DNA of 48,223 nt from Escherichia phage Turner, in the sequence record PP925837.1; one strand, 5' to 3'. This document shows positions 1,095-1,970 of the stretch, in pieces. Below the pieces are notes generated by a model that saw nothing but the letters and a program-made list of their open reading frames with translations, had not been told where the DNA came from and searched no databases. The position numbers were made by a program, and so were the translations under genes. The number at the start of each line of letters is the position of its first letter. The first letter of the stretch is position 1.

Positions 1095-1215
1095 TACCAA
1101 TTAAAAATTATCAACTGGGCATTGTGCTCATTCAGTAAAGAACTAATTCCTATCTTTGCTCTAGGTAGTAATATTAAGCCACCGCAATAATATCTTTACC
1201 TAACGGCGTAAGAAT

Positions 1216-1242
1216 CCCGGTCACCGTGCCGGGTTTTCTTTT
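1216..1242 (+). terminator. rho-independent terminator downstream of the repressor gene
   Basis: Hairpin cccgg-tcaccgtg-ccggg followed by ttttctttt. Confidence 0.5.
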
Positions 1243-1339
1243 GCCCTCCCCTCATCACACACACCGTTAAAAAAACCACCATAACCTCGCTTCAGTTATC
1301 GCTATGCGATTCAAGTCACAAAATAAATCCATCCTAAAT

Positions 1340-1440
1340 ACAACCAGTTATATCTAAAACAACCAATAAAACAACTTTTGTTGTTGACGATAAAACAACT
1401 ATAGTTTTAAATAAGTTCATCGCAACAACACAACGATACG
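1340..1440. promoter_or_regulatory. candidate OL/PL region: repeated AACAAC/GTTGTT operator-like half-sites
   Basis: AT-rich stretch with aaaacaac repeated three times and the palindrome aacaac-tttt-gttgtt at 1370-1385, the same half-site as in the cro/repressor intergenic region. Confidence 0.45.
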
Positions 1441-1688
1441 GCAACTACCTGATTCACCGTTGCGATGACCGCTTAGATCCGCAGTTTGAATTTCAGCAGG
1501 CTTCGGGGAGTGCGAGGGGTGAAACGGACGCGTGAACGTCGGTGTGACCAGCTGAAATTAACTCAACATTTCATACCTCAGTCGCTTCAACGAGGCGGCT
1601 TAGTTATGACAACCGGCGGCCATCCACCGCCTGAATATGCGCAGAAGTCTCTATATGTTCAGCAGCCCAGCTTACGGGCGGAGTTTTT

Positions 1689-1895
1689 ATGGTTCATCAA
1701 CATTACGGAACACAGACCGTTAATCGCGGCGCGGTCATGCCAGGAATGCTGGTCAAACACAAAGATGGTACCTGGACTGCATCAGCTAATTTACGCGGAC
1801 GGCTTTATCTGCATCGCGGCATCGAGCGCACTTATACCCGTGATTTGCTCGTGGAAGTTTTTCTCGACGGACGCGGTAACGGCCTGAATCGCTAA
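1689..1895 (+). CDS. hypothetical 68-aa protein, first gene of the early-left operon (kil/cIII position)
   Basis: ATG with GGAG 7 nt upstream; ends immediately upstream of gam; protein-like composition; no family recognised. Confidence 0.5.
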
Positions 1896-1970
1896 TCCCC
1901 TTTCCTGTTTTCCTAATCAGCCTGGCATTTCGCGGGCGATATTTTCACAGCCATTTTCAGGAGTTCAGCC

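Follow-up and report, generated by a model that had tools for sequence, protein, structure and literature searches.

A compact early-left region with no recognisable N gene and a predicted structured RNA leader ahead of kil in Escherichia phage Turner

Escherichia phage Turner (sequence record PP925837.1; the whole stretch of 48,223 nucleotides (nt) is called the window hereafter) is a circularly permuted lambdoid genome whose positions 1095-1970, between the repressor gene and gam, comprise the whole control region, immunity-left and early-left, of a lambdoid phage of the DLP12/4A7 type (Bievrevirus-like). In this region the gene kil directly follows the leftward promoter PL, behind an untranslated leader of about 270 nt that contains two conserved RNA modules with compensatory base changes. 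We are highly confident of this anatomy and of the gene identities described below, and only slightly less so that an N-type protein system is absent. The statement as a whole, that this is an N-independent early-left operon where the first module (module A) serves as a cis antitermination element, seems to us evenly poised. Taken by itself, an antitermination role for module A is a tentative proposal, and it is somewhat more doubtful that the module represents a class of cis-acting processive antiterminator RNA not described before, a functional analogue of HK022 put with unrelated sequence and fold that would replace N and nut. In textbooks, lambdoid gene control centres on early antitermination by N, and the put RNA of phage HK022 is, to our knowledge, the only well-studied exception.

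The interval from the cI stop codon (1094) to the gam start codon (1971) measures 876 base pairs (bp), against 3,994 bp for the equivalent gap of lambda (cI 37227 to gam 33232), in good agreement with the figures of about 880 bp and 4 kb given in a first-pass annotation of the sequence. The lambda gap accommodates rexA, rexB, OL/PL, nutL, N, sieB, ral, ea10, cIII and kil. In the window, the + strand of the gap holds two open reading frames (ORFs) of at least 30 amino acids (aa) and no more: the 68-aa ORF at 1689-1895 and an overlapping one in another frame at 1486-1887. The first-pass picture of a compressed region without N was right, and what it missed were the OL/PL block and the structured leader filling most of the interval, whose parts are the following:

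1365..1412, + strand: OL/PL, with operators at 1368-1384 and 1392-1408, an inferred -35 hexamer TTGACG at 1384-1389 and an inferred -10 hexamer TTAAAT at 1407-1412.
1420..1565, + strand: leader module A, a conserved non-coding and apparently structured RNA at the 5' end of the PL transcript, with four sequence lineages and covariation.
1464-1477, in module A: invariant motif GAUGACCGCUUAGA.
1479-1488 paired with 1497-1506, in module A: hairpin X.
1507-1523, in module A: G-rich linker of 17 nt, invariant.
1524-1530 paired with 1537-1543, in module A: hairpin Y.
1489-1496 with 1552-1559, in module A: possible pseudoknot, in which the loop of X is AAUUUCAG.
1569..1688, + strand: leader module B, a conserved module of the 5' untranslated region common to phi80, HK225, KO-TP1 and Enterobacteriaceae prophages.
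1571-1609, in module B: hairpin B, enclosing a GAGG as well as the start codon, AUG (1606), of a short upstream ORF that begins MTTGGHPPP.
3' part of module B: hairpin C (1615-1631), GCGCAGAAGUCU (1639-1650), a GC hairpin and the kil Shine-Dalgarno sequence GGAG (1680-1683).
1689..1895, + strand: kil, a cell-division inhibitor gene of the KilR (Rac) type, 68 aa, by its match to PHROG 294.

This structured leader is the place where control most likely departs from that of lambda. PHROG scans of the early-left operon ORFs returned no match to the N, cIII, rex, sieB or ral families, while lambda N itself, used as a positive control, matched phrog_271; that N, cIII, rex and sieB are not recognisable had already been noted in the first pass. 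Beside kil there is no ORF of about 54 aa such as cIII, nor any match to its family, and the records of PhiR34_1, PhiR47_2, IdasGreatGrand and 4A7 carry no annotated N. A search of the PL leader for boxA (CGCTCTTA or GCTCTTTAACA) followed by boxB gave no boxA-like match between 1420 and 1690. When all ORFs were scanned for arginine-rich N-termini, the early operons yielded none besides NinE and a non-conserved leader ORF, namely the other-frame ORF 1486-1887, with its arginine-rich stretch VKRTRERRCDQLK (GTG at 1519, VKRTRERR) similar to the arginine-rich motif of N proteins. With neither an N gene nor a nut site, and with kil as the first gene after PL, the earlier suspicion that early-left control is unlike that of lambda is well founded.

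Module A starts where the identity between immunity types resumes, about 7 nt past the inferred -10 hexamer. Its four lineages come from pattern scans of viral contigs together with a Scandinavium prophage (L036), and its structure was examined in an alignment of 24 sequences. Three pairs of hairpin X are changed on both sides, with 99% of the cells paired, as are two pairs of hairpin Y; for X and Y overall, 95.5% of the cells are paired versus 20-42% with a slid partner, and the covariation score was reached in none of 500 shuffles. There are also invariant U.G pairs, compatible with the RNA of the + strand alone. Because of the compensatory changes in X and Y, together with these G.U pairs that fit only one strand, module A appears to be a real RNA structure of the + strand transcript. 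A different stem, with GAUGACCGCUUAGA as its loop, can be formed in each lineage in different registers and was discarded for hairpin X, whose covariation stays in register.

The unpaired segments of module A, among them the motif at 1464-1477, GGGGAGUGCGAGGGGUG and GGUGUGACCAGCUG, are invariant, and the long ones stay constant across genera, while the loops of X and Y vary in sequence or pair elsewhere. Constancy of this kind outside the helices suggests that a large partner, for instance RNA polymerase, recognises module A; a search elsewhere in the phage for an RNA target of the invariant motif found none. According to a covariance model, there is exactly one copy of module A per phage, always directly after PL and always downstream of a cI-type repressor gene, with or without an inserted accessory gene. 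The genes that follow it differ: kil in the window, an HNH gene in prophage L051, and a mini-ORF and then a Cys-rich protein in L036, L067, L111 and L124, so that module A belongs to the promoter-proximal transcript and not to any given gene. In what we call C-type leaders, the first ~45 nt are common to the leader of phi80, HK225 and KO-TP1, and module A stands where those phages have a hairpin and a near-consensus boxA, TGCTTTTTAACAA.

Of 5,426 complete E. coli genomes, 2,210 contain the segment 1415-1575, and at module A the RefSeq annotation has nothing in the 40 E. coli records listed. The covariance model of module A finds no match in lambda, HK022, phi80 or HK225, Rfam covariance models give none at E <= 1 in positions 1-6000 of the window or on the homologous elements of related loci, and no description of module A was found in the searchable literature. 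In the four prophages with the mini-ORF (in L036, at 1853-2240), this consists of three codons (MKH, stop) behind a strong Shine-Dalgarno sequence and is followed by about 450 nt of conserved ORF-free sequence; within this ORF-free stretch, L124 shows at 4959-5005 a weak Rfam match (37 bits) to a segment of 16S rRNA.

In module B, five pairs of hairpin B are changed on both sides, and the upstream ORF that starts in it ranges from 11 to 37 codons across loci; the downstream sequence of this ORF is kept as nucleotides although its frame differs, and 5 nt of it are deleted in one locus (L033), so that conservation is at the RNA level. The short ORF (AUG 1606) is likely translated, and module B is a separate untranslated unit, probably setting the translation of the next gene through this hairpin-masked upstream ORF. 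At 1606-1632 the ORF encodes a poly-proline stretch, PPP, over hairpin C, which could stall ribosomes and create a dependence on elongation factor P; the stretch reads PPT in phi80 and PPS in L031, and in L033, which lacks 5 nt at this point, the peptide is altered and the stem is kept. In every lineage but the E. coli one of the window, module B lies directly 3' of a canonical intrinsic terminator. Six module A prophages (L036, L105, L220, L225, L234 and L051) have a terminator with a GC stem and T6 between module A and module B or kil, the native one of L036 and L105 being AGCCGCCTAAYCAGCGGCTTTTTT, while in the window A is joined to B at ~1566-1570 and both the accessory genes and the terminator are missing. 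The window also has a rare allele at 1679-1683, one base shorter (GGGC-GGAG versus GGGCAGGAG) and seen in just 1 of 95 other copies. By this change the Shine-Dalgarno sequence of kil is weakened from AGGAG to GGAG, and the upstream ORF, no longer in frame with kil, runs through this gene in another frame to 1887. A repeated junction, AAAGCATTTCTCCCGCATCAGCGGGTAAC...GGGGATG, precedes several unrelated early-left genes (L005 1750-2040, L006 2140-2190, L036 2240-2300) in phi80, HK225 and Scandinavium prophages; it contains the hairpin CCCGC-AUCA-GCGGG and has the look of a linker or of a boundary between modules.

The gene reached at the end of this leader had been set down as unrecognisable as kil, and its 68-aa product as the only candidate for a kil/cIII-like function. 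The kil-like half of this guess was right, and the protein is no orphan: homology searches place it in a named family, KilR (PF27398), unlike lambda Kil, and by family it is a predicted FtsZ inhibitor of the KilR/Rac type. It matches PHROG 294, 'Kil protein for bacterial septation inhibition', over residues 1-67 (E 1.7e-37), and NCBIfam NF008465, 'FtsZ inhibitor protein' (E 3.6e-17), with 62 bits against a subfamily cut-off of 92, which makes it a family member outside the narrow K-12 KilR subfamily. BLASTP aligns it to K-12 KilR with 36% identity (E 9e-13), and K-12 KilR is described as an inhibitor of FtsZ and cell division (PMC12482147). Its 133 database homologues go by the names of 'cell division inhibitor protein' or 'prophage Kil', and all begin MVHQHYG; a search of a local Pfam library with the 68-aa ORF had no match, and the precomputed PF27398 is present in all of the 120 homologues listed among the 133 relatives. 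In size and N-terminus the protein (68 aa, MVHQHYGTQ) conforms to a family of ~67-73 aa beginning M-x-x-(Q/H)-H-Y-G-T, and the gene lies directly upstream of gam-bet-exo in the early-left operon. With the 47-aa lambda Kil, which is placed in other PHROGs (3924/2461/2055), there is no BLASTP alignment at E <= 100. Against 23 homologues, substitutions at codon positions 1, 2 and 3 number 236, 213 and 826, a strong coding signal, and 623 of 947 differing codons are synonymous, a pattern that speaks of strong purifying selection on kil. Neither of the findings that the first pass had named as refuting it, an N or cIII homologue or a 68-aa ORF without coding signal, thus turned up.

Public gene calls at this locus are inconsistent (PV340559 4508-4741, PV340567, PP925829): PhiR34_1 has a 77-aa 'hypothetical protein' in the wrong frame, PhiR47_2 a 'Kil' of 128 aa and IdasGreatGrand one of 96 aa. 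The longer calls of 83-116 aa carry N-terminal extensions that are unrelated to one another. The possibility that a 96- or 136-aa ORF is the true Kil, with the window frameshifted, was discarded, as only the 68-aa core, with its own AGGAG, is common to the homologues, and the frame relation between the upstream ORF and kil differs among natural variants. The proper annotation would be a 68-aa Kil of the KilR type, the 'Kil' calls of 96-136 aa and the other-frame call of 77 aa being artefacts.

As for the control of this operon, our proposal is that, once the repressor is inactivated, PL transcripts would pass the leader straight into kil-gam-bet-exo without a phage-encoded N. Module A, as the first 145 nt of the transcript, present once per phage and independent of the downstream gene, would take the place of nutL and N. 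Acting in cis, by itself or together with host factors, it would turn the RNA polymerase that transcribes it into a termination-resistant one, like putL in HK022. A polymerase modified in this way would pass the lambda-derived terminators at 1920-1946 and 4391-4418 and, in the relatives, the strong terminator between modules A and B. In favour of this proposal, beside the position of module A, its invariant unpaired segments and its place in C-type leaders where phi80, HK225 and KO-TP1 have a hairpin and boxA, module A prophages have a strong terminator between PL and kil-gam-bet and no common candidate for an N gene, and the lambda-derived terminator-like sites at 1920-1946 and 4391-4418 are kept ahead of xis and int.

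Several observations weigh against this mechanism. The covariation of module A is based on only four lineages, and the changes in the pseudoknot helix are one-sided and G.U-compatible, with none on both sides, so that this helix stays a possibility. The position of PL and the start of its transcript, near 1420, are predictions from the sequence. A covariance model of HK022 putL and putR, which recovers both of them at 89-100 bits, gives nothing above 1.5 bits in the leader even with the filters off; as the model is built from only two sequences, distant members could escape it. Neither blastn nor the covariance model of module A found a second copy in the PR operon or elsewhere in the 48-kb window. 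Finally, the terminator before kil has been lost in the window, and a crude scan of the PR operon detected weak sites and no strong intrinsic terminator; for these two reasons, processive antitermination is perhaps dispensable here.

The last two points also fit a slightly less likely alternative without any processive antitermination, where the loss of N, tL1 and accessory genes would have left a constitutively readable PL operon with partial readthrough at the lambda-derived terminators, in the manner of the lambda nin/byp variants on the right arm. Module A would then have another operon-wide role, such as 5' stabilisation, Rho-dependent attenuation that silences kil in lysogens, or an RNase site. 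The leader opens with 46 nt that are rich in C and poor in G (15 C, 8 G), and in the work of Cardinale in 2008 and that on OxyS, nusG and kilR, the kilR gene of Rac is reportedly silenced by Rho/NusG-dependent termination. However, this alternative leaves unexplained the strong terminator that N-less, module A-bearing relatives keep between PL and kil-gam-bet, as well as the invariance of long single-stranded segments across genera, and xis and int still lie behind a terminator-like site, that at 4391-4418. It is improbable that module A instead works like nut, as the loading site of a protein antiterminator, from the phage or host-specific, that is encoded elsewhere and has escaped recognition. 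Its position equals that of nutL, its invariant unpaired segments could bind a protein, and phage mEp021 offers a precedent in Gp17, an N-like protein encoded in the right operon and not in the left one (PMC11893012). Yet module A prophages share no gene between PL and kil, in the early operons of the window no ORF matches an N-like PHROG and no small arginine-rich ORF turned up except NinE and the non-conserved leader ORF, the leader has neither boxA nor boxB, and the variable hairpin loops are unlike boxB-type recognition.

We give almost no credit to the idea of a gene for an N-like protein within the leader, with the arginine-rich ORF VKRTRERRCDQLK... (open from 1486) merely frameshifted in the window. 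It is true that the stretch resembles the N motif, that in 4A7 and PhiR47_2 (L001, L003) it reads on into kil to form one ORF of 136 aa, and that some annotators call a long 'Kil'. However, TAA comes right after the GTG in L036 and the C-type lineages, the D type closes the frame three codons on, and a TAG (CCTTAG) does so in IdasGreatGrand as well as in many of the E. coli copies. Overall, TAA or TGA closes the frame within one to four codons in three of the four lineages, without any family match, which led us to reject this ORF as a gene. RefSeq shows nothing there in the 40 genomes listed, the Kil homologues all begin MVHQHYG behind mutually unrelated extensions, and variation in the stretch tracks base-pairing and not codons. 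Very unlikely, too, is a trans-acting RNA, for example a sponge of host small RNAs, made of module A or of the CA-rich 5' end and released from the PL transcript. The leader does contain, at 1423-1434, a perfect 12-nt complement CAACAACACAAC to the R1 seed of GcvB, and prophage anti-small RNAs such as AgvB exist, which sit downstream of PR' and not of PL (PMC4104026). Genome-wide, however, complements to GcvB occur at chance level (12-mers, about 1 expected and 1 seen; 11-mers, 4.5 expected and 5 seen), this one is not kept in other lineages, and the leader has no terminator or obvious 3' end; the GcvB sponge was consequently rejected as at chance level and not conserved. Known small RNAs (DicF, AgvB/AsxR, IsrK and others) were likewise set aside, as there is no Rfam match and AgvB lies near PR'.

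The compressed layout is found in other phages, too. PhiR34_1 has it with 99.0% identity over the full length of the interval, and 13 further phage records, including 4A7 (genus Bievrevirus), Perceval and IdasGreatGrand, are 91-97% identical from 1136 or later, so by sequence comparison the layout appears to be neither chance nor an assembly oddity. Since PhiR34_1 and the 4A7-type phages were deposited as complete phage genomes, the stated host of the PhiR phages being E. coli K-12 or E. coli C, the compressed layout is functional, with PhiR34_1 and 4A7 as plaque-forming carriers, and it is common in E. coli prophages. The shortness of the region appears to be due in part to two losses with respect to close relatives, that of gevT-gevA and that of the accessory genes and terminator between the leader modules. 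Around the leader and kil lie the following features:

300-70, - strand: YdaS-type cro.
405..1094, + strand: cI-type repressor gene, LexA/S24-type; its ORF is open from 339, with ATG 405 as the likely start.
1136..1210, + strand: gevA scar, the 3' end of an ASCH-domain gene, by alignment to relatives.
1216..1243, + strand: intrinsic terminator closing the immunity (cI) transcript, CCCGGTCACCGTGCCGGG then TTTTCTTTTG, kept in relatives.
1920..1946, + strand: weak terminator-like hairpin in the lambda-homologous gam leader, 98% identical to lambda.
1971..2267, + strand: gam, short form only, 98 aa.
4391..4418, + strand: intrinsic-terminator-like hairpin, an 8-bp stem then TTTTTTATTATT, between the orf61 homologue and a DksA/TraR-like gene.

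The repressor matches the Pfam families Peptidase_S24 (1.2e-18) and HTH_3 (5.4e-13) and is labelled cI in the records of PhiR47_2, PhiR34_1 and 4A7. Its presumed operators follow the motif AAAACAACnnnnGTTKT, present at both OL sites and at OR (333-349 and 377-393), and the OL/PL block is swapped in 4A7, a phage of different immunity, with near-identity back at ~1420. The PL hexamers, with a 17-nt spacer, were picked by eye and were not called by a consensus promoter scan. On the other side of the repressor gene, the only perfect boxA that the search found, of the rrn type, CGCTCTTTAACAA, occupies 46-58 on the - strand, between the stop codon of cro and the Shine-Dalgarno sequence of a YdaT-type cII gene. 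It is not followed by a boxB hairpin and occurs only in the immunity type of the window, while 4A7, L105 and L124 have a small GC hairpin in its place; as it is confined to this immunity type, it was ruled out as a partner signal.

Between cI and its terminator, the relatives PhiR47_2, IdasGreatGrand and 4A7 have a full cassette of 1.37 kb, gevT-gevA, which comprises a toxin and an ASCH-domain antitoxin; the window and PhiR34_1 retain just the last codons of gevA. Positions 1095-1148 align with the 56 nt that follow cI in PhiR47_2, and 1136-1300 with the last gevA codons and the sequence downstream, the two blocks sharing 13 nt at the junction. This alignment suggests that the cassette has been deleted in the window and has left a scar behind. 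Searches of the literature for GevT/GevA, PhiR34 and Bievrevirus found nothing relevant.

At the other end of the region, homology to lambda begins exactly at the stop codon of kil, where both TAA align, and continues with 97-98% identity through orf61 and on to lambda position 30418; one kil family has been swapped for another at a precise module boundary. The gam leader has one extra base with respect to lambda (CCATTTTCAG versus CTA-TTTCAG) and an in-frame TAA at 1914-1916, and the start of the long Gam of lambda falls in the non-homologous, replaced DNA; for these reasons only the 98-aa Gam is encoded, as had been supposed in the first pass. After gam, the operon runs through bet, exo, the homologues of lambda orf60a/63/61, a DksA/TraR-like gene, xis and int (5212-6375). 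The hairpin at 4391-4418 is upstream of xis and int and within DNA 97% identical to lambda 33190-30418. Just after it, at 4469-4687 in the PL operon, comes the DksA/TraR-like zinc-finger gene (PHROG 54, 3.6e-26); DksA/TraR-like proteins bind the secondary channel of RNA polymerase.

The lineage described here is very common in E. coli, being found in about 40% of sequenced strains, and is N-less, with an unannotated covarying RNA at the position of nutL. Should module A indeed modify RNA polymerase, processive antitermination would have a second RNA-based solution, independent of the first and easily testable with PhiR34_1 and 4A7; if it does not, the lineage would exemplify lambdoid life without early antitermination, and the control of a toxic kil placed first after PL.

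Compared with lambda, the window keeps the order of cI, OL/PL, leader, a gene in the position of kil, and gam-bet-exo; it differs in having no rexAB, nutL, N, tL1, sieB, ral, ea10 or cIII, in the unrelated family of its kil, and in the absence of a long Gam ORF. With phi80, HK225 and KO-TP1 it shares module B, which follows a terminator in those phages and precedes kil or another gene. Theirs, however, is a long leader with a hairpin and a near-consensus boxA, followed by small genes, whereas the window has module A instead; the positional 'N' of phi80, one of these small genes, falls in a PHROG of unknown function. The Rac prophage has a homologous Kil (36% identity), a YdaS-type Cro, a YdaT-type CII, no known N and a non-coding RNA directly upstream of kil, but it is defective, carries ydaG, ydaF and sieB between the repressor gene and kilR, and has recET instead of gam-bet-exo. 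That RNA, KilS, is a small RNA annotated in RefSeq (E. coli K-12, positions 4406-4503 of our locus L236), with its own terminator and about 175 nt upstream of kilR; it is a positional analogue of the leader in the window, without similarity to modules A or B.

The closest functional parallel to the proposal is HK022 with its putL and putR, likewise an N-less lambdoid phage whose PL transcript begins with a conserved structured RNA, ahead of all early-left genes, and with no phage protein partner evident. Unlike HK022, the window has one copy of its element and not two, its leader shows no match to put in sequence or structure, and kil comes directly where HK022 has nun at the position of N. 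Module A, whose role in antitermination is a proposal, also differs from put in architecture, with two hairpins set apart by an invariant G-rich linker of 17 nt, an upstream invariant motif and a possible pseudoknot. A survey from 2025 describes phage LLS as another phage without N that may use a put-like mechanism (PMC12315714). Both N-less lambdoid phages, with HK022 as the studied case, and the Rac-type Kil family were already known; what is new is their combination, a widespread functional lineage with kil directly after PL, behind a two-module structured leader.

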